64,000 bases of DNA, from positions 43,977 to 107,976 of the forward strand of contig CAYYPL010000005.1 of assembly GCA_964473555.1 (NCBI GenBank), read 5' to 3'. This document shows positions 241 to 59,206 of the stretch, one piece after another (within the stretch, counting starts at the first letter, position 1; each line of letters begins with the position of its first letter). Source of the DNA: an uncultured Chitinophagales bacterium (GTDB taxonomy: Bacteria > Bacteroidota > Rhodothermia > Balneolales > HLUCCA01). A model generated the notes under the pieces. The model ran no database searches. It saw only the letters and a list, made by a program, of their open reading frames with translations, and was not told where the DNA came from. The position numbers were made by a program, and so were the translations under genes.

Positions 241-521
241 GAGCGGGCAAGCGGGCAAGCGGGTGAGCAGATTTTTGTGTACAAGGGTCAGATAGATCAC
301 AGAACAGAGTACAGAGTGCACAGTGCACAGAATACAGTACACAGAACACAGTGCACAGAACACCGAACAGAGTACACACAAAGAGTTGAACAGTTAGGTC
401 AGAGGGTAGATCAGGGGTCTCGGGTGTGTATAGTGTAATTTGGGTGTGGTAATAGGAAAGCCCTATGCGAGTTCACGGAGATTGATACCGCTAGTTTGCC
501 AGCCCGCTTGCCCGCTTATGG
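241..521. repeat. Modular simple-repeat element: GCGGGCAA arm, CACAG-heptad array, complementary CCCGCTTG arm
   Basis: 241..270 is GAGCGGGCAAGCGGGCAAGCGGGTGAGCAG. 297..380 is an array of about 12 CACAG-type heptads (ACAGAGT, GCACAGT, ACAGAAT and similar). 498..521 is GCCAGCCCGCTTGCCCGCTTATGG, the reverse-complement type of the first arm. The element lies in the divergent region between the aminotransferase start (222) and the capD-like start (849). Track ORFs 22..438(+) and 92..379(-) are read-through artefacts of it. Confidence 0.85.
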
Positions 522-848
522 CAGCTACGCTACCAGCTATTGACTAAAAACCCGTAATCCATTACTTTGGTTTGAAATGAACACGTAAACCGAGATAAAA
601 AATAATGGGCTCAATCTATTTCCATTGCAAACAAAACGGACCGATATAGTATGTCATCAAGAGAAATGGATTGCGATTTTATGCTCAGGCTTTTAATTAC
701 CACAACTAGAAAACCATTTTATTTGGATGTATCCACAGAACCAACACTAAGAAATTTTAATCTTTTTTGGACAGGTTATTCGGCGTATATTTCAAAGATG
801 TTAACGATGGATATTCAATGGCATCCAACTTACAGATAAAGCAATTAC

Positions 849-2714
849 ATGGGAATAAGACTGTTACAAAAAATTGCGATTGATAGCGTTATTTGGATCG
901 CCGCAACCTTTCTGGCTTTTATCCTCCGTCTGGATGGACTCTTCTTCGACCAGTTCGATCAAATAGCTCTTACGGCCGCTATTGTCGCGCCATTTAAAGT
1001 TGGTTTTATTTTGCTTTTCGCCCATCAAAAAGTCTCCTGGCGACACACGAGTGTGATGGATCTATTTACTCCTCTGAAGTCGGTTGGCGTATTTACGATT
1101 TTCTATCTTTCCGCGGCAATCACTTTTTCGAATCCCTCTGTCCTGCCTTATGGCATCCCCATCATTGACGGACTCATAGCCCTGGTACTCTTCGCAACTG
1201 TCCGCCTCATTGCCCGTCTGCTTCTCAAAGAACGTAAAATCATACCCTACTACAGCTCCCCGTCCAATGAGAATATGAAGCGTGTGCTCATCGCTGGAGC
1301 AGGTGAATCGGGAACCATGATCGCCAACGAAATGCTTCGTCACCCTGAAATCGGACTGGTGCCAGTTGGATTCATGGATGATGCTCCTAATAAGCAAAAA
1401 CAGAAAATATTAGGGATTCCAGTACTTGGACGGGTCAATCAACTGCGTATGGTCCTGAACAAAGTTGACGTGGAGGAACTGATCATCGCGATGCCATCGG
1501 AGGACGGCGATGTTATCCGTCGGGTAGTAAATGAGGCACAAAAGGTCAAGCTTCCCAGCCGAACCATACCCGGGTTGTATGATCTGATTTCGGGCAAGGT
1601 TTCCATCAACCAGCTGCGAAATGTGGAAGTTGAGGATTTACTTCGCCGTAAACCGGTAATCCTCGACATGCATAAAATCCGTAGTTATATTGAAGGTCGT
1701 ACGGTCTTGGTTACTGGTGCCGGCGGATCAATCGGATCTGAAATCATTCGTCAGTTATGCCGATTCAAACCGGGACGTGTGATCATGGTTGGACGTGGAG
1801 AGAATTCCATCCACAGTATTTTTCGTGAATTTCAGCACAACTATAGCCACATTCCCTACGAAGTGCGTATTACAGACGTACGCGACATTGTATCCCTGGA
1901 AAAAGTATTTCGTGAGACCCGACCGGAGGTCATTTTCCATGCTGCTGCCCATAAACATGTGAGTCTGATGGAGATGAATCCGGCTCAGGCGGTGCTCAAC
2001 AACGTTGGCGGTACCCGGAATATGGTGAATCTGGCGCTGGAATACGGAGTGAAATGTTTCGTGAACATCTCCTCCGATAAATCCGTGAATCCAAGTTCGG
2101 TGATGGGTGCCAGTAAACGAATCGCAGAATACGTGGTAGATGGTGCTTCTCAACAAGCCAATTCGGACCAGCATTTTGTGTCTGTACGGTTTGGAAATGT
2201 GCTTGGAAGCCGTGGAAGCGTGGTTCCTATTTTTAAAGAGCAGATCCGCAATGGAGGCCCTATAACGATTACCCATCCCGAGATGGTTCGTTATTTTATG
2301 ACCATTCCGGAAGCTTCCCAGCTGGTATTGCAAGCCGGAGCACTGAACATCAATGGCGCTGTTTTTGTGCTGGATATGGGAGAACCGGTCAAAATTCTGG
2401 ATATGGCTCGTGATTTGATCCGATTGTCGGGTTTCGAGCCGGACAAAGACATCAAAATCGTGTATACCGGAGTCCAAAAAGGCGAGAAACTCTTTGAAGA
2501 GCTGCTTACGGCCGAAGAGGGTACCGACATGACTCAGCACGACAAGATTCTGATAGCACGTAAAAACGGAATGCCATCCAACTTCGTTAACCTGTTGGAT
2601 GAACTATTCGATTCAGCAAATGAGGGCGATGGGGAGAAGATAAGAGAGCAAATTCAGGCAATAATTCCTACCTATGCCGGATTCAAGAGCACGGAAAAGT
2701 ACAGCGAACTGTAA
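849..2714 (+). CDS. Polysaccharide biosynthesis protein, CapD/PglF/WbpM type (membrane-anchored nucleotide-sugar 4,6-dehydratase/epimerase)
   Basis: 621 aa with an N-terminal block of about 4 hydrophobic helices. Two Rossmann glycine motifs are present (VLIAGAGESGTMI and VLVTGAGGSIGSEI). The conserved FVNISSDKSVNPSSVMGASKR and RFGNVLGSRGSV segments are typical of Polysacc_synt_2 proteins. Confidence 0.9.
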   Translation: MGIRLLQKIAIDSVIWIAATFLAFILRLDGLFFDQFDQIALTAAIVAPFKVGFILLFAHQKVSWRHTSVMDLFTPLKSVGVFTIFYLSAAITFSNPSVLPYGIPIIDGLIALVLFATVRLIARLLLKERKIIPYYSSPSNENMKRVLIAGAGESGTMIANEMLRHPEIGLVPVGFMDDAPNKQKQKILGIPVLGRVNQLRMVLNKVDVEELIIAMPSEDGDVIRRVVNEAQKVKLPSRTIPGLYDLISGKVSINQLRNVEVEDLLRRKPVILDMHKIRSYIEGRTVLVTGAGGSIGSEIIRQLCRFKPGRVIMVGRGENSIHSIFREFQHNYSHIPYEVRITDVRDIVSLEKVFRETRPEVIFHAAAHKHVSLMEMNPAQAVLNNVGGTRNMVNLALEYGVKCFVNISSDKSVNPSSVMGASKRIAEYVVDGASQQANSDQHFVSVRFGNVLGSRGSVVPIFKEQIRNGGPITITHPEMVRYFMTIPEASQLVLQAGALNINGAVFVLDMGEPVKILDMARDLIRLSGFEPDKDIKIVYTGVQKGEKLFEELLTAEEGTDMTQHDKILIARKNGMPSNFVNLLDELFDSANEGDGEKIREQIQAIIPTYAGFKSTEKYSEL

Positions 2715-2738
2715 CATTCAACGAAAACTATTTGACGT

Positions 2739-4055
2739 ATGGTAAATGACTTGATCGCACGTATAGCGGAGCGTAAATACACTGTTGGTATTGTTGGGTT
2801 AGGTTATGTAGGTCTTCCTTTAATGTGGACCTTTCACAAACACAAGATGCCGGTCATCGGATTCGACATCGATCCATATAAGGTGGAATGTGTGAATACG
2901 GGCAAATCGTACATCAAACATCTCGGCGATGAAATGATGAAGACCCTGTCCAAGAGCGATATTTGCCAGGCAACGACCGATTTTTCACGTCTTACCGAAG
3001 CAGACGCAATTCTGTTGTGTGTTCCGACTCCTTTGGATCTGCACCGGGAGCCGGATATGAGTTATGTGGTTAACACCACCGAAACGGTCTCCCGATACGT
3101 TCGGAAGGGACACCTGGTGATTTTGGAGAGTACCACTTATCCTGGTACCACAGAAGAAGTCATGATTCCGATACTGGAAAAAAACTCAGGACTTAAAGCA
3201 GGCGTAGATTTCTTTGTAGCGTATAGCCCGGAGCGTGAAGATCCGGGTAATGTGAATTTCAACACCGAGAAGATCGCCAAAGTAGTGGGCGGACACGGGG
3301 AAGAGGCGCTTCGTCTGGCAAAGGCGATGTATGATGTAGCTATTGTAAAAACCGTGCCAGTTAGCGATTGCAAGACGGCAGAAGCGGTAAAACTGACTGA
3401 AAACATATTTAGATCGGTCAATATTGCTCTGGTGAATGAGTTGAAAGTGGTTTATGCAGCTATGGGCATCGATGTGCATGAAGTGCTGGATGCAGCGGCG
3501 ACCAAACCCTTTGGATTCATGAAATTCACTCCAGGTCCAGGACTTGGCGGGCATTGTATCCCCATTGATCCATTTTATCTGACCTGGAAGGCACGGGAAT
3601 TTGGGGTACACACCCGATTTATTGAACTCGCTGGTGAAGTGAACACGGCAATGCCTCAATATGTGGTCAACCAGACCGTGGCGGGACTCAATAAAGTCAA
3701 AAAGGCCGTAAATGGTAGTAGGATTTTGTTGGTAGGATTAGCCTACAAGCCAGACGTCGACGATATGCGTGAGAGTCCGACGTTCATATTGATGGAAATG
3801 TTTGAGCATATGGGAGCGGAAATCGAATTTTATGATCCGCATATCCCTGTCATCCAACCTACACGCGAGCACGCAAACTACAACGGACGTCAGTCTGTGA
3901 TCTGGAATCAGCAGGTCGTTGAAGGATTTGATGCGGTGGTCATTGTAACCGACCATAAATCGGTTAATTACGAGGAGTTGTATCAGTGGGCCGAACTGAT
4001 CGTAGACTCACGTAATGTGTACAAAGGTATCAATGGGAAAGTTGTAAAAGCGTAG
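2739..4055 (+). CDS. Nucleotide-sugar dehydrogenase (UDP-glucose/GDP-mannose dehydrogenase family; UDP-N-acetyl-hexosamine dehydrogenase type)
   Basis: 438 aa. It has the N-terminal NAD fold VGIVGLGYVGLPL and the catalytic-Cys segment PGPGLGGHCIPIDPFYL. The C-terminal LGLAYKPDVDDMRESP motif is characteristic of the family. Confidence 0.9.
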   Translation: MVNDLIARIAERKYTVGIVGLGYVGLPLMWTFHKHKMPVIGFDIDPYKVECVNTGKSYIKHLGDEMMKTLSKSDICQATTDFSRLTEADAILLCVPTPLDLHREPDMSYVVNTTETVSRYVRKGHLVILESTTYPGTTEEVMIPILEKNSGLKAGVDFFVAYSPEREDPGNVNFNTEKIAKVVGGHGEEALRLAKAMYDVAIVKTVPVSDCKTAEAVKLTENIFRSVNIALVNELKVVYAAMGIDVHEVLDAAATKPFGFMKFTPGPGLGGHCIPIDPFYLTWKAREFGVHTRFIELAGEVNTAMPQYVVNQTVAGLNKVKKAVNGSRILLVGLAYKPDVDDMRESPTFILMEMFEHMGAEIEFYDPHIPVIQPTREHANYNGRQSVIWNQQVVEGFDAVVIVTDHKSVNYEELYQWAELIVDSRNVYKGINGKVVKA

Positions 4056-4149
4056 GTCGTGGACGTTGGGTAGTGGACGTTTGGTGGTTCACAACCCAAT
4101 TTTTTGTATATTTGAGCCTGAAACAACCACTGTAAAAACAGGCCATTTT

Positions 4150-5694
4150 GTGCGTTCAATCGCGTTTTTTTTCGTAATCTGTTTCTGGGTCACTGCGTTG
4201 CAGGCACAGATCGCCGAGTCTGTGATCTTGAATGATGCTCGTGGTGCCAAATCTGATCTCGTAATGCGTGGAGCGTCGTTCCGCGCAGGTGCACCTGGCT
4301 TGTCTGTATTACCCATTCACAGTGGATATTATTACAATTCCCGATTTGCCTGGGGACCAAATATGGGTAATCTCTGGCTCGGACGTGGATTCACCCAGGG
4401 ATTGTCGGCTGGAATCCGGTATACAAACCGATTTTTGGATATTCAGTTCAACCCGGTTCTGCTAGCCTCCGAAAACCGTTATTTTACGCAACCCACCGAT
4501 GGAGATCGGTATCAAGGCCGTGATCTGGAGTATTATGAGTATGTGCAGGGCAATATCGATGCTCCGCTCAGGATTGATGACACCTCGTTTTCAAGAGTGT
4601 TACCGGGCGATTCCTGGGTAAAAATCCACCTTTGGAAGCTAGCTGGTGGTATAAGTAACGAAAATCTGTGGTGGGGTCCGGGGAAACGAAATTCTCTGCT
4701 GATGAGTAATCATGCTCCCGGTTTCTGGCATTTATCCGGACACACCACATCGCCTCTTGATTTGTATGCATTTGACATCGAGGGACAGGTAGCCGTTGGG
4801 CTGCTGGAACCGTCTTATGCCCTGGACGACTACCGTGCTGACTATCGGGTCATTTTCAATGGGCTTGTTCTAAGTTTGAGTCCGAGATTCGACAAAAACC
4901 TCAAGCTTGGAGTCATCCGGACATTTATTCTGAATCAAAATGATATTTTGAATCATGCGGGGTACTTCCCGCTATTTCAGCCTTTTTTGAAAAATAATCT
5001 GACATTACGTGACGACAACACGACCAATGATCCCGACGACCAGCGGGCTTCGGCATTTGTATCCTGGGCGTTTCCACGAGCAAATTTCCATGTCTATGGC
5101 GAGTACGCGAGAGATGACCATAGTGCTGATCTGAAGGATTTGTACTTGCAGCCGAATCACAACCGGGCTATTTTGTTCGGCCTCCAGAAACGATGGAATA
5201 CAACTCAGGGCCTCTGGTCATTTACCTCCGAGTTTGTTCAACTCGAAACCACCAATACTAAGGTTATTCGCTGGTTTGAAACATTTTACACACACACCAG
5301 GGTCGAACGAGGTTATACCAACCGCGGTCAACATCTGGGAAGTCATTATGGTCACGGGTCTAATGGATGGTATTCCAGCGTGTATCGCATGAACGATAAA
5401 TGGACAACAGGTTTCGTGTTTGAACGCGTAGCCAGAAACAAAGATCTGTATCAGTGGATCAAAGAGAACCGTAAGCCTGCGCAACCCGAGATCGAAACTA
5501 CGTTTGGTCTGGTGGGTTGGTATCGGACAAAAAACATGGATTTCGGCCTTGAGGTCTACCAAAACTTTGTTCAAGATCGATTTATGGTAGGTATCCGTCC
5601 GGCAGAGGGGGAGCAGCGGGTGTCTTATGATCCCGTGAATTTCAACATACAGTTTACGGTGACCTATCGGCCGGGATTGCGGTGGGGTAAATGA
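4150..5694 (+). CDS. Outer-membrane beta-barrel protein, capsule-assembly Wzi-like (tentative family call)
   Basis: The track ORF is 4066..5694. The likely start is GTG 4150, which gives the signal peptide (M)RSIAFFFVICFWVTALQAQ. It is an aromatic/Gly-rich beta-strand protein with the motif LWWGPGKRNSLLMSNHAPGF, which I recall from Wzi-family proteins. It is a paralogue of the next gene. Confidence 0.55.
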   Translation: MRSIAFFFVICFWVTALQAQIAESVILNDARGAKSDLVMRGASFRAGAPGLSVLPIHSGYYYNSRFAWGPNMGNLWLGRGFTQGLSAGIRYTNRFLDIQFNPVLLASENRYFTQPTDGDRYQGRDLEYYEYVQGNIDAPLRIDDTSFSRVLPGDSWVKIHLWKLAGGISNENLWWGPGKRNSLLMSNHAPGFWHLSGHTTSPLDLYAFDIEGQVAVGLLEPSYALDDYRADYRVIFNGLVLSLSPRFDKNLKLGVIRTFILNQNDILNHAGYFPLFQPFLKNNLTLRDDNTTNDPDDQRASAFVSWAFPRANFHVYGEYARDDHSADLKDLYLQPNHNRAILFGLQKRWNTTQGLWSFTSEFVQLETTNTKVIRWFETFYTHTRVERGYTNRGQHLGSHYGHGSNGWYSSVYRMNDKWTTGFVFERVARNKDLYQWIKENRKPAQPEIETTFGLVGWYRTKNMDFGLEVYQNFVQDRFMVGIRPAEGEQRVSYDPVNFNIQFTVTYRPGLRWGK

Positions 5695-7394
5695 TCGGTG
5701 CCGTGTTGATTTACCTGGCACTGGTACTTGGGTATCAGGTACAAGCAGGGGATTCCGTTAGAGCTTCTTCGGTGGCTATGGAGAGTGTTACGGATAGTGT
5801 ACAGATTCAGCAGGTTGCCATGCCAACGGACTGGCGCGGGGAAGTACGTGCGTTTCGGGACTCTCAGACGCTTGGATTGCTGCCATTAGAGCCTTCGCTG
5901 TTGTTTTGGACGGGCACATGGGCGGTTTCGGCCAGGCAAGTGACCCCGGATGATGCAAAAAAACTGCGCATTGAGTTACAGGATGTACGTGCTACTTTCG
6001 TAGCAAACACAGAATATGGATATGCACGAAACTATGGAGCTGTGTTTCCATCCAATGGCAGAACAGGGTTGTATACTTTTCATGCCAGTGCGCGATATGG
6101 GGGTCTGTCCATCAATCTGGCTCCTGAAATGGTTGTATCTGAGAACAAACCCTTTCAATTGTATCCCTCAAAATATCCCGATTGGTTGTGGGATTTATTA
6201 TACACCAATTATCTGAACCAGATTGATCAGCCTGAACGCTACCGCGAGTACTCGTATATGCAGTTATTGTCTGGTAATTCATCAATTGGCTATGCTACGC
6301 GAGGGATGGAAGTGGCGTTAACCACCCGGTCGATGTGGTGGGGGCCAGGGCGAAGGAATAGCCTGTTGATGAGTACCAATGCACCTGGATTTGCACATAT
6401 AAGCATCAATACCGTCCGTCCGGTCAAGCTTCCCTGGGGCGGAATTGAATTTCAGTGGTTTCTCGGCAGATTGGTAGATTCGGGCAGAGAGCCTTTACCA
6501 CCACGACTGTTCGAAAATTTTCAGCCAATGCCTTATGTCCCGAAACCAGATGACTGGCGACTCTTACAAGGATTACTGGCAATTTGGCATCCGAAATGGA
6601 GTCCGGGTCTGTATATTGGGGTGGGTCGAACGGTAATGGGATACTCTGAATCGATTACACGTGTGGATCATGCGTTTTCTGTATTCAGATCATTAACCAC
6701 AGAGCTTCTGGATACCGATGAGATCCAGAATCCGGATTTACGGGAGCGTTTTGATGATAAGATTGCCGCCTATGTGCGTTATGTGATGCCTGAAGATCGG
6801 TTGGAGTTCTATGCGGAGGTGGCTAGAAATATGCGACCAGGCTCATTGCGCGACTTTCTTGCTCGTCCCGAGCATACCCTGGCTTACACGATTGGCATCA
6901 GTAAATGGTATGAGTTAGGACAAAGTGATCGGTTCTTAGGTATAGAAGCTGAGTTTACGCAGATGGAGAAGCAGAATACCTGGCAAGAACGCTATTACCA
7001 GACGTGGTACACGAGTCTGATTGTGCCGCACGGTTATACGAATCGTGGACAGATCATGGGCGCTTCAATTGGTCCCGGAAGTAATAGCCAGTATCTTGGT
7101 TTTAACTATCGTTGGAGGCAAAATAGAGTCGGTACTTTTGTTGAACGGGTGATATACAATAATGATCTGTACTACATTTTGTTCACAACGAGCATCTACA
7201 GGTTGTGGTCGGATGTAAATTTTGGGTTGTCTGGAGAATATCGTTATGGCAAGTTCGATGTGTTCTATGATGCTACCGTGATGAGGACGTTTAATTACAA
7301 ATATATTGAAACGACCACTCGTCCGGGATTTAAGTATGAGGGTAAAGACGTGTGGAATTTGAATCTCGGGCTAGGTGTCAGATACACCTTTTAG
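5691..7394 (+). CDS. Outer-membrane beta-barrel protein, Wzi-like paralogue
   Basis: 567 aa. The start overlaps the upstream stop (ATGA at 5691..5694). It shares the motifs MWWGPGRRNSLLMSTNAPGF and GYTNRGQIMGASIGPGSNS with the upstream gene. It ends ...GLGVRYTF, and a terminal aromatic residue is typical of OM barrels. Confidence 0.55.
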   Translation: MIGAVLIYLALVLGYQVQAGDSVRASSVAMESVTDSVQIQQVAMPTDWRGEVRAFRDSQTLGLLPLEPSLLFWTGTWAVSARQVTPDDAKKLRIELQDVRATFVANTEYGYARNYGAVFPSNGRTGLYTFHASARYGGLSINLAPEMVVSENKPFQLYPSKYPDWLWDLLYTNYLNQIDQPERYREYSYMQLLSGNSSIGYATRGMEVALTTRSMWWGPGRRNSLLMSTNAPGFAHISINTVRPVKLPWGGIEFQWFLGRLVDSGREPLPPRLFENFQPMPYVPKPDDWRLLQGLLAIWHPKWSPGLYIGVGRTVMGYSESITRVDHAFSVFRSLTTELLDTDEIQNPDLRERFDDKIAAYVRYVMPEDRLEFYAEVARNMRPGSLRDFLARPEHTLAYTIGISKWYELGQSDRFLGIEAEFTQMEKQNTWQERYYQTWYTSLIVPHGYTNRGQIMGASIGPGSNSQYLGFNYRWRQNRVGTFVERVIYNNDLYYILFTTSIYRLWSDVNFGLSGEYRYGKFDVFYDATVMRTFNYKYIETTTRPGFKYEGKDVWNLNLGLGVRYTF

Positions 7395-7475
7395 TCGCTT
7401 GGGTTTCGGGATGTATTGTGTTCGTTGAGTATTCCTTCGCAAAAACAGACGTCCAGCTTTAAATGCCACCACGTT

Positions 7476-7634
7476 CCCTCATCCCTCATCCCTCATCCCT
7501 CATCCCTCATCGCTCATCCCTCATCGCTCATCGCTCATCGCTCATCCCTCATCGCTCCTCCCTCGTCAAAAATCTTAGCCCTGTGTACTGCAAACTGCAT
7601 CCTGCGAACTTGTGCTCTGCATACTGTGCTCTGT
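7476..7634. repeat. Modular simple-repeat element (C-rich orientation): 13 CCCTCAT/CGCTCAT heptads plus a CTGTG/CTGCG array
   Basis: 7476..7566 is 13 consecutive 7-nt units (CCCTCAT x4, then CGCTCAT/CCCTCAT mixed, ending CGCTCCT CCCTCGT). 7579..7634 is GCCCTGTGTACTGCAAACTGCATCCTGCGAACTTGTGCTCTGCATACTGTGCTCTG. The reverse complement gives the same module order (CACAG array, then GACGAGGGA + GGGATGA heptads) seen in the intragenic blocks at 15-16.7 kb. Track ORF 7416..7661 is an artefact of this element. Confidence 0.85.
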
Positions 7635-7830
7635 AATCATTGTACTGATTACTCCGAATGAAATGAGGATTCGTTGTGAAATCTGAGCACTTTCTGCAAG
7701 GATTATCATTTTCATCACTCATATATATGATCGAGGGTTTGTCGGGTGATGAAGTGTGCCACTGAGCGAACTTGTCCCCCTCCCACCTCCCTTGATCTTC
7801 ACATTCATTTAACGATCAAGAGGTTTAACC

Positions 7831-9981: not shown

Positions 9982-10079
9982 GGTAATACCGGGAGGCGGG
10001 CTTTTGCTCGCCTCTCAATATTTGTCTATTTTGAGCCGTTATCATGCTACAGTTTTCGAGGCTCTAAATAGTTTTTCCT

Positions 10080-49624: not shown

Positions 49625-49627
49625 ACC

Positions 49628-49758: not shown

Positions 49759-49832
49759 AAAGACATAGATAGGTATTAACGCAGATCAGATATTGCGAGC
49801 GTTGAGTATTTATCCGTATATTTTAGCTCTAC

Positions 49833-49916
49833 GCCGAAGTGGTGGAATTGGTAGACGCGCACGTTTCAGGGGCGTGTGAGGGCAACCTCCTGTGGGTTCG
49901 AGTCCCACCTTCGGCA
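49833..49916 (+). tRNA. tRNA-Leu (CAG)
   Basis: The sequence is GCCGAAG TG GTGGAATTGGTAGACGCG CACGT TTCAGGG GCGTG TGAGGGCAACCTCCTGT GTGGG TTCGAGT CCCAC CTTCGGC A. It is an 84-nt class II tRNA with a long variable arm (GAGG-GCAA-CCTC) and anticodon CAG. Confidence 0.93.
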
Positions 49917-49924
49917 CTTGAAAG

Positions 49925-49961
49925 AAGTCCTTGTAGTATAATAGCTTACGAGGACTTTTTT
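49925..49961. terminator. Rho-independent terminator after tRNA-Leu (also abuts the convergent kinase gene)
   Basis: The sequence is AAGTCCTTGTAG-TATAATAG-CTTACGAGGACTTTTTT. The stem includes G-U pairs and is followed by a T-run. The stop of the minus-strand kinase gene (49960..49962) overlaps the T-run. Confidence 0.7.
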
Positions 49962-52044: not shown

Positions 52045-52255
52045 GTACAGCCGCGATGATTAGTAGAACAGAATGTCTTTGATTTGATAGGAATGTAACA
52101 GGATTTCCATCAAACGACAACCCAACTTTGTTTTCAGTTCAGGGATGCAGCGCACATCAGATTGATTTGTGCATCATTCGTGATGGAGAAGTATATTGAT
52201 GCACTCGCAGTTTCATCCCTATTTTTCAGCTATCCATGTTAACCAATCTATTATC

Positions 52256-52714
52256 ATGAAAGTATACTTCTTTATCGTCTTTTCTGCCTTGTTGTTGTTG
52301 TCTGAATCAAAACCGGTATGTGCACAGGAGTCTAATGATGAACAGCTACTTACCGAACTGCTTCATTGGTTTATGGATGGAGCTTCACGCAACGACAGGC
52401 AGGTCCACGACCGGTTCTGGGCCGATGATCTGATCTATACCAGCTCAGCCGGACTCCGTTTCGGAAAAGACCAAATTATGTCCGGATTCGAGGTGTCCCA
52501 ACAACTTCAGGAGGTTGCCCCTGCCATCACCTACACCGCCCATGATATCCAGATCAACGTGTACCATGATGTCGCCGTTGTGGCATTTCAAATGAAGGGA
52601 GAAACATTGAATACGGAAGGCACTTCCGTTGCCTGGTATCTGAATAGCGGCACCTTTTTGAAGCGAAACAACGAATGGCGCGTCGTCAACTGGCAAGCGA
52701 CCAGGGTTCCTTAA
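52256..52714 (+). CDS. Secreted SnoaL-like / DUF4440 (NTF2-fold) protein
   Basis: The track ORF starts at TTG 52196, and ATG 52256 gives the signal peptide MKVYFFIVFSALLLLSESKPVCAQ. The pattern ..FWADDLIYTSSAG.........WRVVNWQAT is typical of NTF2-like DUF4440 proteins. Confidence 0.65.
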   Translation: MKVYFFIVFSALLLLSESKPVCAQESNDEQLLTELLHWFMDGASRNDRQVHDRFWADDLIYTSSAGLRFGKDQIMSGFEVSQQLQEVAPAITYTAHDIQINVYHDVAVVAFQMKGETLNTEGTSVAWYLNSGTFLKRNNEWRVVNWQATRVP

Positions 52715-52786
52715 AAAAAGCACTTCGGAGGTTGGGTGAGTCCCTGGTCCGAAGTGCTTTAAATACGAAGCTATATTGATTATGGA

Positions 52787-55700
52787 CTACTCTTCGAGAT
52801 TGTCAATAGCGACTTGTACAGCGCGCTCCAGCTGCTCATCATGTCCCGAATCAATCACGCCCGGCATGTTTTTGACCCTTACATCCGGATCAGTCTGATT
52901 GTTTTCCATCCATTTATTGTGGTAGTTGCGGGCACTGACGGGGACAACACCCCAGCGGGTTCCATCAGGCAGACCTTCCCAGCCAGCGTAGCTACAGGTT
53001 CCGGGAACCGGCATACCGATAGAAGTTCCGAGTTTCAGTTCATTGTAGGCCGCCGCGTAACAATGTCCATCAGAGTACATACTTTCGTTGAACAAGGTAA
53101 CGGTCGGTTTTGTCCAACGTGCGGTTGGTTCACCACCCACATCTTTGGCAGCTGTTGCGTAAGTGCTGAATTTTCTCCCGGTGAAGAACATGGCAAGGTC
53201 GGCCACAAGGTCGCCACCACCGTTGAATCGCACATCAACCACCATCGATTCACGGTCGTAATATTTACCCAGCATCGCATCGATCACGGTACGATAAGGA
53301 CCGTCGCCCATGCCTGGAATATGGACATAACCCAGGCGCCCGTTACTGAGTCGGTTGACTTCTTCCTCATTGATGCGGATGAAACGTTGATACAATAATG
53401 CACGCTCGGCACCCAGTGAAACAGGCTTCACGGTTACCTGTCGTCGATTTTTGCCATCGGCACTCACTACTTCCAGCAGGACAAAGTTACCCGTCTTGCG
53501 GTTCAGGTAGCTGGCTATGTCACGGTCTGTTGTAATGATCTCACCATCAATGTTCTCAATTACCATTCCAGCAGTGATGTTCATCCCGGCTTTGTCCAAC
53601 GGACCACCTTGGATTACTTCAGTAATCTTAATTCCATTGCCACGGTACCCGTAATCGAAGAAAATGCCAAGCGAGGCAGTGGCGTCAGCATTCTCGATGC
53701 TGGAGCTGTATCGGGCTCCCGAGTGTGATACATTCAACTCACCGAGCAACTCGGATAACAGTTCAGCAAATTCGTACGAGTTGCCCAGATGCGGCAGAAA
53801 TTTGCGGTACTCCCGAGCCATGAAATCCCAGTCAATTCCATGGAACGTAGGTTCATAGAAGATGTTTTTGGTTCGGATATACACGTGTTCGAACATTTCA
53901 GCGCGTTCTTTACCAGCATCATAGGTCATTTCACCCGCAATTCGTATCCCCGATGAGCTTCCGGCTGACACATTGAGCTTGGATATCGTACCTCTACTTA
54001 GCAAATACAGATTTTCCATGTCCTTGTCCCAAACAAGGCTTCCACCTCCCGTATTAAGGCGGATCACCTGCTTGGTATCACGAGTACGCAGATTGGTTTC
54101 CCAAAGATTGTAATTTCCTTCAAAACTGGTAAGGTAGTACAGCTTTTCTCCATCTTTTGATAAGGTCGCATCGCTCAGAGAACTTGAATGGATGGTAAGG
54201 CGTGCTTTACGATCCCTGACTCCGTCCAGATCAAATTGAAGTGGTGGAATCACCTTGGAATCTTCTTTTTTTGCATCGTCTTTTTTGTCCTTTTCCTTAA
54301 GTTTATCGAGTTCTTTCTTGAGTTTGAATTCGTCTTCACTCAGGTTAAAGGTGTCCCAGCCTTCCTGGGTAAAAAACATGCTGTACACATCCCGTTCGGT
54401 TTGACCACTGGTTGCATAGCTACGTAGTCCGTCGCGATTGGAGAACCAGAGCATTTGCTTGCCTCCCATAACCCACTTCGGACGCATTTCCTCAAAGCCG
54501 CTTTCAGTCAGGTTGATCCGTTGGGATCCATCTGCAGCCAGTAACAATACGTCACTGTTCGTCAGTCTGGAACTGAAATCGTGCAATAACCAACGACTAT
54601 CAGGACTCCACGAGAAGTACTTGTCACCATCACTCATGTGGAACAGATCTTCGGGTGTGAGCAGATCTACGGTGTTGCCTGTAGCCAGATCTAAAACACG
54701 AAGCGTGCGTCGGCCGGCGATATAAGCAAGTTTCCTGCCATCGGGACTGTACTCGGGAAGGTAATTGTCTTCGCGATTTTGAACCACAATGGATTCCTTC
54801 AACAAGGTTGAAGCATAGAAAAACGGCTCTTCAGCACGAACTTTCTCAGTCTTGAAAATACTCCATCTTCCATCACGCTCACTGGCGTAGACTACCCCTT
54901 TTCCGTCCGGAGTAAACATCACAAAACGCTCGCGTTCAGGGGTGTTTGTAATGCGCTTGGTCATAGCTCCGTCTACTGAAGTCACAAAAACTTCACCACG
55001 GGCAATGAATGCGATTTCTTTTCCATCCGGGGATATGGCCATTTCCTGAACGCCACCATTGATCGTGATAAACTTGTCGGTATTCGCTTTGTCCTGAGTT
55101 CGGATGCGCACCTGTACTTTTCTCGGCTCCTGACCGTCGCGCAGGGTATACAGATCACCGTCATATCCGAATGCCAGCACGCCGTTACCCTGACTCAAGA
55201 ACCGAACCGGGTGGGTCCCGAATCGGGTGACCTGTGTACGCTCGGAAGGATTCGAAACAGGCATTTTGTGCACATTGAACGTGCCACTTTCTTCGCTCAG
55301 AAAATAAATGGTCTGCTCGTCCTGACTCAATACTGGCTGACGATCTTCTCCGAGCCAGTTAGTCAGCATCGTATGCGTGTTTGAATCCGCATCGTACATC
55401 CAGATATCTCTGGTGATATCAGAGCGATGGTGTTTTCGCCATTCATTTTCGCCCCCTTTTTTGTCGTGATAGATCAGTTTGGAGCCATCCCGGCTGGTTT
55501 GCACAAATTCGGCTGGAATGGTGAAAATCTGGGTCACTCGTCCACCAGAAACTGGAACGCTGTACAATTCAGGTTGAGAAGCAGTTGGGAACTGACGATG
55601 CTCGGCAGTATCCATACGCTGTGCGCCGAATAAAATCGAGTTACCATCAGCAGAAAAGGTGTACGGACTTTCGTCATTGGAATGGAACGTGACACGGGTA

Positions 55701-55999
55701 GCGGGTCCTCCCATTGCATCCATTACGTATACATCGAAGTTACCGTATCTGTCGGATGCGAATGCGATTTTAGACCCATCCGGACTCCAGACGGGCATAT
55801 AATCATGTGCTTCGTGGAAAGTCAGCTGTGTTGCATCGCCACCGCTGGCAGGAACGCGATATAAGTCACCCAGATAGGTGAAAACAATGTGATTTCCATC
55901 GGGAGAAATGGATGGATATCGAATCCATTGAGCATTGATCTGGGCAACGGCCGCAGAAGACAGCGCAGTCAGGATCAACGTGAGTAAAAGTTTTTTCAT
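52787..55999 (-). CDS. Tricorn-like S41 peptidase (TolB-type beta-propellers + PDZ + S41 core)
   Basis: 1070 aa with a signal peptide. It has repeated propeller motifs (ISPDGNHIVF, WSPDGSKIAF, ISPDGKEIAF, FTPDGKGVVY, YSPDGRKLAY, WSPDSRWLL) and a PDZ-like segment (GGPLDKAGMNITAGMVIENIDGE). The C-terminal S41 region is VVDVRFNGGGDL... Confidence 0.88.
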   Translation of the reverse strand: MKKLLLTLILTALSSAAVAQINAQWIRYPSISPDGNHIVFTYLGDLYRVPASGGDATQLTFHEAHDYMPVWSPDGSKIAFASDRYGNFDVYVMDAMGGPATRVTFHSNDESPYTFSADGNSILFGAQRMDTAEHRQFPTASQPELYSVPVSGGRVTQIFTIPAEFVQTSRDGSKLIYHDKKGGENEWRKHHRSDITRDIWMYDADSNTHTMLTNWLGEDRQPVLSQDEQTIYFLSEESGTFNVHKMPVSNPSERTQVTRFGTHPVRFLSQGNGVLAFGYDGDLYTLRDGQEPRKVQVRIRTQDKANTDKFITINGGVQEMAISPDGKEIAFIARGEVFVTSVDGAMTKRITNTPERERFVMFTPDGKGVVYASERDGRWSIFKTEKVRAEEPFFYASTLLKESIVVQNREDNYLPEYSPDGRKLAYIAGRRTLRVLDLATGNTVDLLTPEDLFHMSDGDKYFSWSPDSRWLLHDFSSRLTNSDVLLLAADGSQRINLTESGFEEMRPKWVMGGKQMLWFSNRDGLRSYATSGQTERDVYSMFFTQEGWDTFNLSEDEFKLKKELDKLKEKDKKDDAKKEDSKVIPPLQFDLDGVRDRKARLTIHSSSLSDATLSKDGEKLYYLTSFEGNYNLWETNLRTRDTKQVIRLNTGGGSLVWDKDMENLYLLSRGTISKLNVSAGSSSGIRIAGEMTYDAGKERAEMFEHVYIRTKNIFYEPTFHGIDWDFMAREYRKFLPHLGNSYEFAELLSELLGELNVSHSGARYSSSIENADATASLGIFFDYGYRGNGIKITEVIQGGPLDKAGMNITAGMVIENIDGEIITTDRDIASYLNRKTGNFVLLEVVSADGKNRRQVTVKPVSLGAERALLYQRFIRINEEEVNRLSNGRLGYVHIPGMGDGPYRTVIDAMLGKYYDRESMVVDVRFNGGGDLVADLAMFFTGRKFSTYATAAKDVGGEPTARWTKPTVTLFNESMYSDGHCYAAAYNELKLGTSIGMPVPGTCSYAGWEGLPDGTRWGVVPVSARNYHNKWMENNQTDPDVRVKNMPGVIDSGHDEQLERAVQVAIDNLEE

Positions 56000-56241
56000 G
56001 ATGTAGAAAAGTTTGATTGATATACCTGAAACTGATTATCAGGAAACGTTGAGCAAATAGCAGGAATCTAAGCTAAAAATCGCTTGAAAACAGGTGCTTA
56101 GTATTTTTTAACATTGAATAGGCTCAACATACGTGTGATAAACGTGTACGGATCGGCCAAGATGACTCTATTGCGGAAAGTAGGCAAGGTCTAATTCCAG
56201 GTTCTCGGAACTTATTCTCTCCAGCCTGTCGTTACACCACC

Positions 56242-57027
56242 ATGGAAAATGAAGAATTATATCGGGTAGACGGGTCCACTGCTGTGGTTACGGGCGCAGG
56301 ATCAGGCATTGGCCGGGCATGTGCCATCCAACTGGCTGAAGCAGGCGCGATGCGGCTCTTCCTCACCGGACGACGAAAAGAACTCCTGGACGAAACTGCA
56401 CTCATTATTTCATCTTTAGCTCCTCAAACGATGGTCGTGGTAGCATCGGGGGATGTAAATGATGCTAAATGGCGAAAAGAACTGGTTTCTGAAATCTTTG
56501 TGAATGGTCCGCTCGATATCCTGGTGAACAACGCAGGTGTGTACCACGCCACCCAGTTCGAAGACACCACCGATGCTGAGCTTACGTCGGTGATACAGAC
56601 GAATCTGGCGTCCGTATTTTCATTGACCCGAGATCTGCTACCCTTGCTGGAAAGAAGTACCTATCCGTCGGTGATCAATATCGGGAGCACACTGAGTATT
56701 CGTCCCATCGCGCAGGGAGCCAGCTATAACATGTCCAAAGCAGCTATCGATCACCTGACCCGAAGCTTGGCGCTGGAGTTGGGTCCGCGTAGAATCAGAG
56801 TGAACTGTGTGTCGCCTGGAATCGTGGAAACACCGATGTACCGTGGACGATTCTCATCTGAGAAAGCCTATCGTGATGCCATCGACCAAGCCACATTGTG
56901 GCATCCCTTAGGCCGTGTTGGTGCGCCGGAAGATATTGCAAGATCGGTGTTATTTTTGGCAAGCAGGGCATCATCTTGGATCACCGGAGTGGTGTTACCT
57001 GTAGATGGTGGATTACTCACGACCTGA
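56242..57027 (+). CDS. SDR-family oxidoreductase
   Basis: 261 aa with TGAGSGIGRA (TGxxxGxG), NNAG and the catalytic YNMSKAA (YxxxK). Substrate unknown. Confidence 0.9.
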   Translation: MENEELYRVDGSTAVVTGAGSGIGRACAIQLAEAGAMRLFLTGRRKELLDETALIISSLAPQTMVVVASGDVNDAKWRKELVSEIFVNGPLDILVNNAGVYHATQFEDTTDAELTSVIQTNLASVFSLTRDLLPLLERSTYPSVINIGSTLSIRPIAQGASYNMSKAAIDHLTRSLALELGPRRIRVNCVSPGIVETPMYRGRFSSEKAYRDAIDQATLWHPLGRVGAPEDIARSVLFLASRASSWITGVVLPVDGGLLTT

Positions 57028-57051
57028 CCAACCTCAAATTGAGTTCTTATT

Positions 57052-57681
57052 ATGATGATTAATGTGATGGCATCGTCGGTGGATGGATTTGTGGCTGCGT
57101 ACAGTGGTCAGACAGACGCCGAGCGCCACGAACGGGGATTTTCGTCCGATGCCGACTGGCAGCGACTCAAGGAACGGTTGAAAGGTGCAGATGCTGTGGT
57201 TCTGGGCGCAAAGACGATGTCGACGGCCAATGGAGCTGTCGATCAGCCGCGAGAGGATGGTACGTATCCGGTTTGGTTTACGTTTACTAACTCCGGAATT
57301 CCAGCTGATAACGCTTTTTGGAGGCAGTCTCATATTCCGCGGGTCGTTGTGTCGAAAGCTAAGTTGACAATGCACGACGATTTGGTCGAGAATCTGGTGT
57401 ACGGGGATGAAGACCCGGTAGCGTTTGTGGTCAGGATCCTGAGGGAGCGGGGTATGGAGCAGGTGTTGTTGTTTGGGGGAGGGACGATGAACAGGATGTT
57501 TTATGAGGCGGGTATGGTCGATGAGCTGCATGTTACGATCTGTCCGTTGTTGGTTGGGAGTGCGGAAGGAGTACCGCTGATTGAGCCTGGATTATCTAAA
57601 GTTACCAAGTTGACGCTGAAGTCGGTTGAGCCGCATGGAGATCTGCTGTTTGTCCGGTATCTTGTGAGTAAAATAGAGTAG
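57052..57681 (+). CDS. RibD C-terminal domain / dihydrofolate-reductase-like family protein
   Basis: 209 aa with NVMASSVDGFVA..., GADAVVLGAKT and VLLFGGGTMNRMFYEAGMVDELHVTICPLLVG. These are typical of the RibD_C (DHFR-fold) family. Confidence 0.8.
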   Translation: MMINVMASSVDGFVAAYSGQTDAERHERGFSSDADWQRLKERLKGADAVVLGAKTMSTANGAVDQPREDGTYPVWFTFTNSGIPADNAFWRQSHIPRVVVSKAKLTMHDDLVENLVYGDEDPVAFVVRILRERGMEQVLLFGGGTMNRMFYEAGMVDELHVTICPLLVGSAEGVPLIEPGLSKVTKLTLKSVEPHGDLLFVRYLVSKIE

Positions 57682-57705
57682 TTGAACGTACATAGATTGT
57701 AGATT

Positions 57706-58266
57706 ATGCCTGAAGCCATGTCATCTGAAGCGAAGTTTAAAGAGTTCGAGCACAAGTACCTGCTCGATGGATCAGAGTCGGTGGGATCGATTTTTAAGGC
57801 GCTTCGGGGTGTCAGTGGGGGGGAGGAAAAAGCCCTTGAGGTGACGGATATCTATTTTTATGAAGGAGCTGCACCGAAGTTCGTGTACCGCCATCGCCGG
57901 GACCGCGAAATCCAGCAACTTACAGTTAAATCGTTGGGTACCGACGCCAGAGACCGCACCGAGATCAATCTGCTTCTCTTAAACGAAGAAGATCAGTTTG
58001 AGGCGGTTGACCGATTCATGGCAACGCTTGGTGATTTCAGGAAACGCATCATTCGAAAATCCATTCAGGTTATTGATTTTCCCGATTGTGAGTGTGTGTA
58101 CTATGAAGCCACTAACGGTACTAAAACCGTTCAGTGCTTCGAGTTTGAGGCATTGGGAGCAGAAAACCTAGAGCAGGCGTTACGCATCATTTCAAAATAC
58201 GAGACATTGGCGGGATTCATACCAGAGACCCGCTGTCATCAGAGTTTATTTGAACTATTGAGCTGA
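57706..58266 (+). CDS. CYTH-domain (triphosphate tunnel metalloenzyme) protein
   Basis: 186 aa. The N-terminal EFEHKYLL gives the ExExK signature of CYTH domains. Alternating charged beta-strand segments follow (YRHRRDREIQQLTVK, DRTEINL). Moderate confidence. Confidence 0.6.
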   Translation: MPEAMSSEAKFKEFEHKYLLDGSESVGSIFKALRGVSGGEEKALEVTDIYFYEGAAPKFVYRHRRDREIQQLTVKSLGTDARDRTEINLLLLNEEDQFEAVDRFMATLGDFRKRIIRKSIQVIDFPDCECVYYEATNGTKTVQCFEFEALGAENLEQALRIISKYETLAGFIPETRCHQSLFELLS

Positions 58267-58269
58267 GTT

Positions 58270-59013
58270 ATGAAACAGGACATCATTCGCATCCAGCAAA
58301 TGCACGTTCAGTGCTACATCGGCATCCACCGACACGAGCGTCACGAGCGTCAAACGTTGCTTGTTGATGTGGAAATGTTTCTGGATCCGATTGCTGTATC
58401 TGAAAAGATCACATTGTCCAGCTCGGTCGATTATTCAAAGATTTATGGAGAGCTGAAATTTCTACTCGAGGCATCCCAATTCCGATTACTCGAAACAGCT
58501 GCTCAGGCACTGTGTGCTTATTTATTGGCACCATCAGTTTCCGATCGCCCACAGGCTACCATCAATGCGGTCAAACTAACGTTGAGCAAACCCAGTGCGT
58601 TGAAGTCTGAAGCGGTTCCCAGTCTCACGGTCTATCGTGAAGCCAGTGATTTCAAGCCCGGGCATGAAGTCAATCATTTTGGCGAGGTCGATATCATTCA
58701 TGAGAGTAATGATTGCGGAGTATATCGGCTTAGGATTCCGGCTGGGGGAGCCATTCCAGCGCACTATCACGACGTGATGTCGGAGGGGGAGATGGCGATG
58801 AGCGACGGACTTTTACTTCAAAACAAGCCTCTATCTGCCGGATTAGCCCACTATTGGCCTCAAAAGTTCGTGCATGAGTACAACAATCCAACTGAAATTA
58901 CCCGAACGGTGCTATGCGTTAATCGTCCCGCGTTTATTCCATCGGATGAGATTTTAAGTCCCGAAGCGCCATTGCATGATCCACCGCCGGGCTCTATGGT
59001 CAGGTATTATTGA
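58270..59013 (+). CDS. Dihydroneopterin-aldolase (FolB)-like domain fused to a cupin domain
   Basis: 247 aa. Residues 1 to about 125 (IRIQQMHVQCYIGIHRHERHERQTLLVDVEM...VDYSKIYGELKFLL...FRLLETAAQALCAYLL...VKLTLSKPSA) are collinear with FolB-family proteins. Residues from about 135 to 235 look like a cupin (YRLRIPAGGAIPAHYHDVMSEGEMAMSDGLLL...HEYNNP). Confidence 0.65.
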   Translation: MKQDIIRIQQMHVQCYIGIHRHERHERQTLLVDVEMFLDPIAVSEKITLSSSVDYSKIYGELKFLLEASQFRLLETAAQALCAYLLAPSVSDRPQATINAVKLTLSKPSALKSEAVPSLTVYREASDFKPGHEVNHFGEVDIIHESNDCGVYRLRIPAGGAIPAHYHDVMSEGEMAMSDGLLLQNKPLSAGLAHYWPQKFVHEYNNPTEITRTVLCVNRPAFIPSDEILSPEAPLHDPPPGSMVRYY

Positions 59014-59034
59014 GAAGCGGGGAGCAGTATTTTA

Positions 59035-59206
59035 GGGAGTGGGAAGTAGGGAGTGGGAAGTAGGAAGTAGGGAGTGGGGAGTGGGGAGTCGGAATGATTT
59101 TCTACTTCACTGAATTTTACAGATATTAAGACAATGTGGTTGGTTATTTCTATCGTATGGGATTATTGTCATAAATCTACTACCCATTTCCTACTTCCAA
59201 CTACCC
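59035..59206. repeat. Modular element: GGGAGTG/GGAAGTA heptad arm (8 units) / AT-rich core / complementary CTACTTCC arm
   Basis: 59035..59093 is GGGAGTG GGAAGTA GGGAGTG GGAAGTA GGAAGTA GGGAGTG GGGAGTG GGGAGTC GG. 59177..59206 is CTACTACCCATTTCCTACTTCCAACTACCC. It contains TTCCTACTTCC, the exact complement of GGAAGTAGGAA in the left arm. The element starts 22 nt after the FolB-cupin stop and ends 42 nt before the peptidase ATG. Confidence 0.88.

Follow-up and report, generated by a model that had tools for sequence, protein, structure and literature searches.

The window analyzed here, a stretch of 64,000 nt (64 kb) from contig CAYYPL010000005.1, contains ten repeat elements, each of which is a mosaic of short tandem arrays with units of 7, 8 or 9 nt. 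These elements are a lineage-specific composite simple-sequence family within the class of heptameric long simple sequence repeats (SSRs), i.e., of the short tandemly repeated repetitive (STRR) type. The family is distinguished by composite nested hairpins, by the copying of multi-array blocks, by three frame-filtered inserts in a gene for a GT-C glycosyltransferase and by blocks that are conserved at the nucleotide level. Alignment with related contigs indicates that array content and copy number turn over fast while the flanking genes stay conserved. Alignment within the window indicates that multi-array blocks are copied between nearby loci. Inside the gene only frame-keeping, stop-free versions survive, and these become loops that are predicted to be disordered.

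Tandem Repeats Finder (TRF) identifies arrays of period 7 or 8, or their multiples, at all ten loci, and these are confirmed by reading of the sequence. An earlier sequence-only reading of the window had listed ten clear loci, and its coordinates are essentially those of the TRF arrays. The TRF rows comprise 19 of period 7 and seven of period 8, plus multiples of 14, 21 and 28. Arrays of period 7–9 cover 1188 nt of the window, compared with a mean of 60 nt and a maximum of 121 nt in 30 dinucleotide-preserving shuffles of it. The excess is about 20-fold within the window. Counts of single unit words were discarded as a signal because their enrichment is weak; the signal resides in the tandem arrays. 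The loci show the properties of the heptameric long SSR or STRR-type class: 7-nt units are arranged head to tail (the class ranges from about 5 to 11 nt), the arrays exceed chance, and they vary between genomes. The ten loci are dispersed over the 64 kb and seven of them are intergenic. An assembly artefact, a possibility considered in the earlier reading, is ruled out, since independent metagenome assemblies of relatives from the Joint Genome Institute (JGI) carry elements at the same sites.

The vocabulary consists of at least eight unit types, each found at two to six loci. Unit A (RYRCAGW, the CACAG type) forms arrays at six loci (241, 7476, the three intragenic loci and 17009), unit B (YGAGGGA) at four, and unit C, the octamer GCGGGCAA, at five (241, the three intragenic loci and 49628). 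Unit D (GTAAACR) and its complement d (YGTTTAC) are present at about six loci in eight arrays or arms, and unit E (GGGAGTR; e is CTACTYCC) at three loci (59035 and two intragenic). The remaining types are the 9-mer F (CAGGAAGAT), the 21-mer G (GCAGGGGCAAGGGATCAGAGT) and unit h (CTTATCC). Sharing of this extent is far above that of independent microsatellites. The sequence-only reading had proposed five shared unit types. A shared vocabulary is upheld, but the number is too low, and GACGAGGGA and GGGATGA, there taken as separate units, are two registers of a single array, (YGAGGGA)n. It had also proposed a recurring module order; the CACAG array is indeed followed by the YGAGGGA array at five loci of the window, but the order is fixed only in part, e.g., locus 16337–16678 reads D-C-A-B-F-G-d-h. 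Four G-quadruplex motifs are present in the window and all four are inside YGAGGGA or GGGAGTR arrays. Three loci once listed as degenerate members (23926–24049, 26434–26540 and 30798–31089) have no TRF array and contain only scattered unit-like words.

Table 1. Repeat elements of the window and the glycosyltransferase gene that holds three of them; x gives the number of copies of a unit
Feature	Position	Strand	Arrays in order	Context	Fold and motifs
Hairpin element	241–521	+	left arm (AGCGGGCA)x2.8 at 242–263, CACAG-type x11.6 at 298–378, unique segment, right arm (GCCCGCTT)x2 at 502–517	between divergent starts: minus-strand DegT-like gene (start at 177–222) and plus-strand gene (start at 849)	arms C...c, paired (RNA fold); -98.2 kcal/mol, z = -4.7
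Reverse-orientation arrays	7475–7634	-	(TCCCTCA/TCGCTCA)x12.9 at 7475–7564 (reverse complement of YGAGGGA), degenerate reverse CACAG-type array at 7580–7634	tandem genes: Wzi-like (stop 7394) and protein secreted by the type IX secretion system, T9SS (start 7831)	G-quadruplex motif, minus strand
GTTTAC-type arm variant	14533–14590	+	(CGTTYTC)x8 (TRF: 14534–14590, x8.1)	ends 6 nt before glycosyltransferase ATG	
Glycosyltransferase gene	14597–17005	+		one uninterrupted open reading frame (ORF) of 802 codons; 802-aa membrane glycosyltransferase, GT-C fold (ArnT/PMT_2-like)	
Insert 1	15065–15289	+	CAGGAAGAT 9-mers, CACAG array, YGAGGGA array, GCGGGCAA x3, GTTTACC x3.9, CCGCTCACCGCT, CTACTTC x3.3	coding; 75 codons, residues 157–231	
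Insert 2	15884–16162	+	GGGAGTR array, CACAG array, YGAGGGA x4.3, GCGGGCAA-type x3.9, GTAAACA x2, unique segment, CCGTTTA x4.1	coding; 93 codons, residues 430–522	
Insert 3	16337–16678	+	GTAAACA x2.6, GCGGGAAA x3, CACAG-like, GACGAGG x3.9, AAGATCAGG x3.3, 21-mer x2.2, CCGTTTA x4.1, CTTATCC x3.9	coding; 114 codons, residues 581–694	
Direct arrays only	17008–17289	+	CACAG-type heptamers x31 (17008–17228), (ACCGTTTTCTGTAT)x4.1; higher-order period of 92 nt x2.4 at 17011–17229, 93% match	entire spacer between convergent genes	no hairpin (z = -0.5)
Hairpin element	49225–49345	+	GTAAACAG-type left arm 49225–49254, GCGGG-like core, (GTTTACT)x3.9 right arm 49318–49344	tandem genes: Y-family polymerase (stop 49182) and 86-aa ORF (start 49364)	arms D...d; z = -4.7
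Hairpin element	49628–49758	+	GCGGGC-type left arm, unique core (GGTCAGAAAGAACAGAAAGTGCAG...), (CCGCTTGC)x3 right arm 49735–49758	begins 4 nt past a stop codon, ends 75 nt ahead of tRNA-Leu	arms C...c; z = -2.5
Hairpin element	59033–59206	+	(GGGAGTR)x8.1 left arm 59033–59089, unique core, CTACTTCC-type right arm ~59180–59206	tandem genes: 20 nt after FolB-like stop (59013), upstream of S9 peptidase gene	arms E...e; z = -6.3; G-quadruplex motif

Complementary arrays often make up the two sides of an element, so that a long hairpin forms. Four intergenic loci (the hairpin elements of Table 1) are of this type, with stems made of complementary arrays, and D...d pairs are also nested in inserts 2 and 3 and in the upstream element of a related contig, L001. 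A composite block of about 90 nt, in which CACAG, YGAGGGA and GCGGGCAA arrays follow in order, is present at several loci. Across these arrays inserts 1 and 2 share 92 nt at 81.5% identity, which is the best paralogous match in the window. The junction of the CACAG with the YGAGGGA array is found at five window loci (inserts 1–3, 241, and reversed at 7476) and, reversed, upstream of the glycosyltransferase gene in L001. Right arms are also preceded by non-array junction motifs, both at several loci and in three genomes; the motif is ATGGSCCGTTTAC for d arms and TACCGCT for c arms. The shared block and junction motifs imply that the loci are related copies and not independent de novo repeats, and the presence of the ~90-nt block at several loci implies that growth in place is not their only source and that blocks are copied. 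Both the folds and the block alignments bear out the composite, partly palindromic build described in the sequence-only reading.

Three of the loci (15065–15288, 15884–16160 and 16337–16678) had been listed along with the intergenic elements. They are not intergenic; all are inside the intact ORF 14597–17005. The encoded protein has distant homologues that carry PF13231, and its best structural matches are ArnT, AglB and Pmt. Together the three inserts provide 282 of the 802 residues (35%). An alignment of 19 homologues shows that proteins of 537–575 aa have none of the three segments, and that other lineages have unrelated sequence in the same loops. The inserts contain no stop codon in the frame of the gene and have 1–9 stops in each of the other five frames (2–4 in each for insert 1). 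E, R, G and D are abundant in them, in contrast to the hydrophobic remainder of the protein. An AlphaFold model (predicted template modeling score, pTM, 0.71) has a predicted local distance difference test (pLDDT) score below 50 at residues 185–223, 440–523 and 594–684, stretches that fall within inserts 1, 2 and 3; the model thus predicts the inserts to be disordered loops. Both the window and L001 have an intact ORF with the inserts kept in frame; the related contig L248, which covers only the 5' part of the gene, has insert 1, also in frame.

Comparison of the window with L001 shows identities at codon positions 1, 2 and 3 of 73, 67 and 66.5% in the inserts, versus 81, 91.5 and 57% in the flanking coding sequence. 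This lack of a codon-position pattern, together with the pLDDT values, indicates that there is no protein-level constraint on the inserts. Well-matched pure heptamer arrays have at most 5.7 copies within the gene, compared with 8–31 copies in intergenic positions. The longer expansions within the gene have periods divisible by three (9, 21, 30, 39 and 42). Units that generate a stop codon at three copies (GTAAACA, GGGATGA, GGGAGTA) are present in two or three copies at most in the sense orientation. The copy limits, the frame-neutral periods and the codon-position data fit a satellite-like turnover with frame and stop-codon filtering. A similar avoidance of genes is seen in 240 loci of other organisms, where period-7 arrays outside versus inside long ORFs number 416 versus 29 and 255 versus 69, and are shorter inside. 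This preference for positions outside long ORFs agrees with published surveys (PMC4679880, PMC4692102).

Six syntenic contigs were obtained through orthologues of the glycosyltransferase or of GlmS. L001 is about 75% identical in nucleotide sequence to the window and carries an element at each of the five sites in and around the glycosyltransferase gene; the shorter L248 has elements at both sites that it covers. The arrays in both differ from those of the window. A GTTTAC-type array is found directly upstream of the glycosyltransferase start in three genomes with differing copy numbers. L001 has a full element of 330 nt at this position, and upstream of its gene it has (AACTGTG)x17 with a 99% match where the window has the d-type array only. 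Downstream of the gene, L001 has an 84-nt higher-order repeat in three copies where the window has 31 CACAG heptamers.

Another contig, L247 (GCA_964550435.1), encodes a GlmS that is 94% identical to that of the window, and at the two sites near tRNA-Leu its flanking sequences share about 90% identity with the window. The elements at these two sites are non-homologous to those of the window. The site of 49225–49345 holds an unrelated hairpin with purine and pyrimidine arms, and the element 49628–49758 is replaced. No heptamer arrays are detected by TRF in the 21.8 kb of L247. Contigs L122, L124 and L126 have the same gene order, short spacers and no heptamer arrays; the convergent gene pair that flanks 17008–17289 in the window overlaps by 12 nt in L126. 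The more distant L123 has purine-rich octamer arrays (GAGGGGAA, GAAGGAGA, ATCAGAAG) at 10451–10610 and 12057–12084, in the first glycosyltransferase loop and the downstream spacer. This looks like an independent colonization of the same positions by a different vocabulary. The occurrence of array-rich, other-vocabulary and array-free relatives in synteny shows that abundance and vocabulary are properties of narrow lineages. In L248 (~1340–1856), a JGI contig, the sequence matches the glycosyltransferase gene only as far as the left edge of insert 2, beyond which it is unrelated; the probable cause is a chimeric assembly or a break at the repeat.

Individual units are widespread. Sequences with (GTTTACY)x3 are found at 120 or more loci of many phyla, and GACGAGG-type arrays in at least 120 metagenome contigs with GC contents of 36–74%. 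Most of these diverse loci carry several heptamer types, sometimes as inverted pairs. A universal cross-phylum vocabulary was rejected as an explanation. In the viral collection, the one in which this control was made, the real unit has 31 matches and two composition-matched scrambled heptamers have 33 and 27. Since scrambled heptamers are about equally frequent, the wide distribution reflects a general abundance of heptamer arrays and not a shared family. Inverted pairs of heptamer or octamer arrays are present in unrelated phyla (L021, L002, L018 and L037, from Fibrella, Gemmatimonadales, Pyrinomonadaceae and Chloroflexota), e.g., TTCAAGT x6 ... ACTTGAA x4.6 and GGACAGCG x3.8 ... GCTGTCCC x3.9. 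In Fibrella it is the pyrimidine-rich arm that leads, a polarity opposite to that of the window hairpins.

The elements are probably the outcome of slippage and unequal exchange, combined with recombination-mediated local copying of selfish or neutral DNA, although we hold this with only moderate confidence. Arrays would be born, lengthened and shortened through replication slippage and unequal exchange. The higher-order periods of 92, 84 and 42 nt and the near-perfect long arrays point to such expansion in place. Blocks may then spread, mostly over short distances, by ectopic recombination or template switching in which shared arrays serve as homology, and a dedicated transposase would not be required. 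Strand-switch events could give rise to the inverted arms and keep them matched. The elements would be mainly selfish or neutral DNA, with possible side effects on expression of the adjacent surface-polysaccharide genes.

Several observations weigh against slippage and local copying as the full explanation. Slippage and ectopic conversion are deduced from patterns in the arrays. Three genomes retain the array directly ahead of the glycosyltransferase start, which could reflect a function, as could the polarity of the hairpins, in which the purine-rich arm is at the 5' end in seven of seven scored. The left block of insert 2 (15884–15990, 107 nt, modules E-A-B) is 92, 97 and 91% identical by codon position to L001 6880–6990 and includes a 53-nt exact run, the longest in the gene. 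The adjoining coding third positions are 53–69% identical, and high identity begins at the element boundary. A block of 80 nt in insert 3, 95% identical to L001, behaves similarly. A third-position identity of 91% is not predicted by pure neutral turnover. Within-genome homogenization does not explain the conserved block, since paralogous copies (~81%) are less alike than orthologous ones. What remains is a constraint at the nucleic-acid level, a recent exchange between lineages, or an unknown maintenance process.

Two other causes of the conservation in insert 2 were rejected. The antisense ORFs of the window (15799–16128) and L001 (6555–7034) differ in start and length and mirror the conserved DNA. 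A broader recombination tract does not fit, as the rise in identity coincides exactly with the element boundary, next to which coding third positions are only 69% identical.

The hairpins raise the possibility of non-autonomous mobile elements similar to MITEs, i.e., miniature inverted-repeat transposable elements, or to REPINs, the hairpin form of repetitive extragenic palindromic (REP) sequences. A trans-acting enzyme, e.g., an HUH transposase of the IS200 or REP-associated tyrosine transposase (RAYT) type, would move hairpin-array units to new sites, genes included. The composite blocks and junction motifs common to several loci, the four long hairpins with uniform polarity, and a nucleotide-level block conservation of the kind expected of recognition sequences agree with this, and the contrast between array-rich and array-free close relatives is reminiscent of bursts of activity. 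On reading of their flanks, the four hairpin elements show no convincing target-site duplication, only a 4-nt ATGG on both sides of 241–521. HUH-type transposition leaves no target duplication, so its absence does not exclude mobile elements. However, a Pfam search of 40 ORFs, nearly all the large non-overlapping ones of the window, finds no Y1_Tnp or other transposase domain, and for the four remaining large ORFs the syntenic L001 genes carry non-transposase Pfam families. There are no near-identical full-length copies in the window, where the best paralogous match is the one between inserts 1 and 2. The ends are undefined, consisting of arrays of variable length in place of the fixed ends of a MITE, and the same sites hold different content in relatives, which suggests turnover in place. 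Searches of phage and plasmid collections reveal no similar DNA. Mobile elements of this type therefore seem unlikely. Doubtful to a like degree is a self-propagating class of composite hairpin arrays, in which a trans-acting factor (an enzyme or an RNA- or DNA-binding protein) would recognize the blocks, keep them near-identical and copy them to new sites, coding loops among them. On this view, near-identity despite saturated synonymous sites is exemplified by the GGGAGTR-CACAG-YGAGGGA block in insert 2, with its 91% identity at third positions. If such a class exists, non-coding repeats repeatedly yield new protein segments, and the array-rich and array-free syntenic series would let the determinant of heptamer-repeat proliferation be identified.

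Functional readings were weighed as well. Heptamer slippage might switch or tune the expression of surface-polysaccharide genes, i.e., the arrays would be contingency loci for phase variation. Such switching has precedents in the 7-bp repeats of the Haemophilus influenzae hmw1A promoter and in the tetranucleotide repeats within lipopolysaccharide (LPS) glycosyltransferase genes. Seven of the ten loci are in the capsule/polysaccharide cluster, the array 6 nt upstream of the glycosyltransferase start differs in copy number among three genomes, and a change of one heptamer within the gene would shift the reading frame. Yet arrays within the gene are short and imperfect, and where they have expanded the period is frame-neutral, which looks like selection against switching. 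Elements are also found beside housekeeping genes and a tRNA, and relatives with the same cluster have no arrays, so that contingency loci appear quite improbable. Still harder to sustain is a REP-like role, or one like that of bacterial interspersed mosaic elements (BIMEs), in which 3' untranslated hairpins terminate transcription or shield mRNA from 3' exonucleases. The sequence-only reading proposed such a role and stated that most loci begin 4–25 nt after a stop codon. This is true of four of ten (17009, 49628, 59035 and 14533); 241–521 is between divergent starts, one locus abuts a start codon and three are in coding sequence. Four loci fold far better than shuffles, and an inner hairpin at 59078–59108 fits a terminator pattern. 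The stems are not followed by T-runs, though, and one weak terminator-like site overlaps an element, such sites being no more common than in shuffles. The largest post-stop locus, 17008–17289, has no hairpin, and hairpins are not conserved at orthologous sites. Ordinary intrinsic terminators are present elsewhere (e.g., 9991–10016 and 24080–24110). On these grounds a terminator function is not supported, and neither is a 3' stabilizer role, given contexts of every kind, no excess of terminators and unconserved content at orthologous sites. A search of Rfam (release 15), a database that the sequence-only reading had proposed, yields no known RNA family: only two tRNAs reach the gathering score and nothing else has E <= 1 over positions 1–18000 and 49000–59400.

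Finally, the intragenic copies could be adaptive protein segments, hydrophilic linkers or interaction loops kept by selection, with their repeat nature incidental. The window and L001 keep all three in frame, as does the partial L248 gene for insert 1, their composition is hydrophilic, and the same loops are expanded independently in other lineages. Their divergence has no codon-position pattern, though, different lineages have unrelated sequences in a given loop, disorder is predicted for the loops, and the same DNA modules are present in non-coding positions in both orientations. We regard this as highly improbable.

Among known systems, the closest are the STRR sequences, reportedly described in 1990, of heterocystous cyanobacteria (Calothrix, Anabaena). 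Their units are CCCCAGT, TTGGTCA and CAACAGT. The comparison with STRR made in the sequence-only reading holds. STRR and other heptameric SSRs share with the present elements 7-nt tandem units, dispersed and mostly intergenic sites, adjacency of several heptamers and strong lineage specificity. None of the three STRR units is found here, so the elements are not STRR in the strict sense, and the host is not a cyanobacterium but a member of the Balneolales. Other differences are the admixture of octamer, nonamer and 21-mer units, the recurrent composite blocks with nested inverted arms, and the three copies in the reading frame of one gene. The novelty claimed in the earlier reading was overstated, as mixed heptamer arrays, inverted pairs and intragenic heptamers have been described in Bacteroidetes, cyanobacteria, Beggiatoaceae, Xanthomonas and Geobacter (PMC4679880, PMC4692102, PMC2700814).

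The TAACTGA direct repeats are known from Beggiatoaceae, cyanobacteria and five Bacteroidetes (MacGregor 2015, PMC4679880). They too form intergenic arrays, often directly ahead of start codons, have no evident mechanism of mobility, are accompanied by other heptamer types (in Gramella, Aequorivita and Microcystis), are absent from close relatives that share the gene neighborhood, and have occasional copies within ORFs, only in the stop-free orientation. In contrast to the present family, they have one dominant unit versus at least eight, and their copies within ORFs are mostly at protein termini and not in mid-protein loops of ~75–114 codons; a prominent hairpin architecture is a feature of the elements described here. 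G-rich heptamers such as GGGAATC of Xanthomonas and GGGGAYT of Nostoc (Rehm et al. 2015, PMC4692102) resemble the present units in having G3 tracts able to form G-quadruplexes, in inverted array pairs, and in the filling of the same intergenic sites in related species with extensive variation in length and sequence. Here G-tract units are only part of the vocabulary, to which the CACAG and GTAAAC types do not conform, and no composite multi-unit blocks or in-frame inserts are reported in that study. The four-heptanucleotide-repeat elements of Geobacter metallireducens (GGACCGG family, 49 copies, within and between genes; PMC2700814) differ in their fixed length of four units of a single type and their proposed role as regulatory RNA, with no composite or hairpin architecture reported.

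Rickettsia palindromic elements (RPEs) are selfish DNA found in frame within protein-coding genes (PMC10969869; PMC1779305). By functional analogy the inserts are similar: palindromic elements are tolerated in frame, and the extra peptide is at a surface or loop position and does not destroy the protein. Inserts of 75, 93 and 114 codons that are stop-free and absent from orthologues agree with this pattern. RPEs, however, are unit-length sequences of ~100–150 bp with a family consensus and not mosaics of 7–8 nt arrays, and their host clade is unrelated. Considering the tandem-unit build, homology to an RPE consensus appears implausible. REP, BIME and REPIN sequences are also intergenic, with a palindromic or hairpin build and a mosaic of few motifs. 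REP units are imperfect palindromes of ~20–35 nt, whereas the present units are direct repeats of 7–9 nt, with palindromy only between whole arrays. BIMEs are mosaics of such palindromes with alternating orientation. To our knowledge, they are not found inside coding sequences and typically lie in 3' untranslated regions or in the spacers of operons; the contexts given above show that the present family is not extragenic in this sense. REPINs are tied to a RAYT gene (PMC3116915), and none is seen in the 64-kb window.

Among the long SSRs of bacteria, no class is as over-represented as tandem heptamers. Heptamers have been reported to be over-represented among bacterial long SSRs, with polymerase slippage suggested as the cause (2007 survey, as cited in PMC4692102). 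The Balneolales lineage offers a compact comparative series, with array-packed, other-vocabulary and array-free genomes in one syntenic cluster, and thus material for seeking the genetic determinant of heptamer arrays. The glycosyltransferase shows how much such repeats can contribute to a conserved membrane enzyme, here 35% of its residues, in the form of frame-filtered, predicted-disordered loops, and its inserts are a clear example of coding sequence that arises from selfish or neutral repeats. On the practical side, the elements mislead start-codon calls (59134 for 59248, 49271 for 49364) and inflate ORF lists. Probably they also break short-read assemblies, as the chimeric contig L248 suggests.

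The best named relatives of the GlmS protein are from Balneolales/Cyclonatronaceae at 70–75% identity, and the host is accordingly a member of the Balneolales. The window, to which the repeat survey of the source organism extends, encodes a capsule/polysaccharide cluster, SusD, a TonB-dependent receptor, T9SS cargo genes and a rhodopsin/Blh pair. The GlmS relatives, together with the SusD, TonB-dependent receptor and T9SS genes, agree with the earlier assignment to Bacteroidota/Balneolota. The loci are clustered, with seven of ten in the first 17.3 kb and three in a single gene.

Some further observations concern sequences near the elements. The S9 peptidase gene has a longest ORF that begins at 59134, within the repeat element; the ATG at 59248 gives an N-terminus similar to a signal peptide (MNLFQKSLRSLLPLLVLITL) and is likely the true start. 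Two hairpin elements bracket the 86-aa ORF (49364–49624, plus strand; 17665–17925 in L247), which is conserved, has no Pfam match and is downstream of the Y-family (IMS) polymerase gene (47743–49182). Its mechanical start at 49271, inside the upstream element, is probably wrong. A long hairpin (TTCTTGAACGCAACTGA...TCAGTTGCGTTCAAGAA) at 49160–49222 spans the stop codon of the polymerase gene. Its stem ends are kept in L247 while the interior differs, and in both genomes it is immediately followed by the repeat element. At 24080–24110, the 3' end of the isocitrate dehydrogenase gene (minus strand) has a clean bidirectional intrinsic terminator (AAAAAAGGCGCCTTTCAGCGCCTTTTTT), which shows that the organism uses ordinary terminators.

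A direct repeat at 4055–4085, listed in the sequence-only reading as a small member of the family, is genuine but unrelated in sequence. It consists of 14 nt (GGTAGTGGACGTTG, x2.2) and joins the stop of the UDP-glucose dehydrogenase gene (4055) to the start of the Wzi-like gene (4066). The microbial rhodopsin gene (45205–45915, plus strand) adjoins a gene for beta-carotene 15,15'-dioxygenase (Blh; 45976–46902, minus strand), the usual pair for retinal supply, and the pair is kept in L247. The GlmS of the window (43149–44984) has a normal length of 611 aa. The GlmS homologues P0067 (732 aa) and P0071–P0073 (848–858 aa) have inserts of 120–240 residues after about residue 60. These are low-complexity or tandem-repeat sequences, e.g., a 14-aa repeat (GAAGSTHDDNNN..., corresponding to 42 nt) in P0067. 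Repeat-derived inserts in housekeeping enzymes may be common in the Balneolales-related clade.

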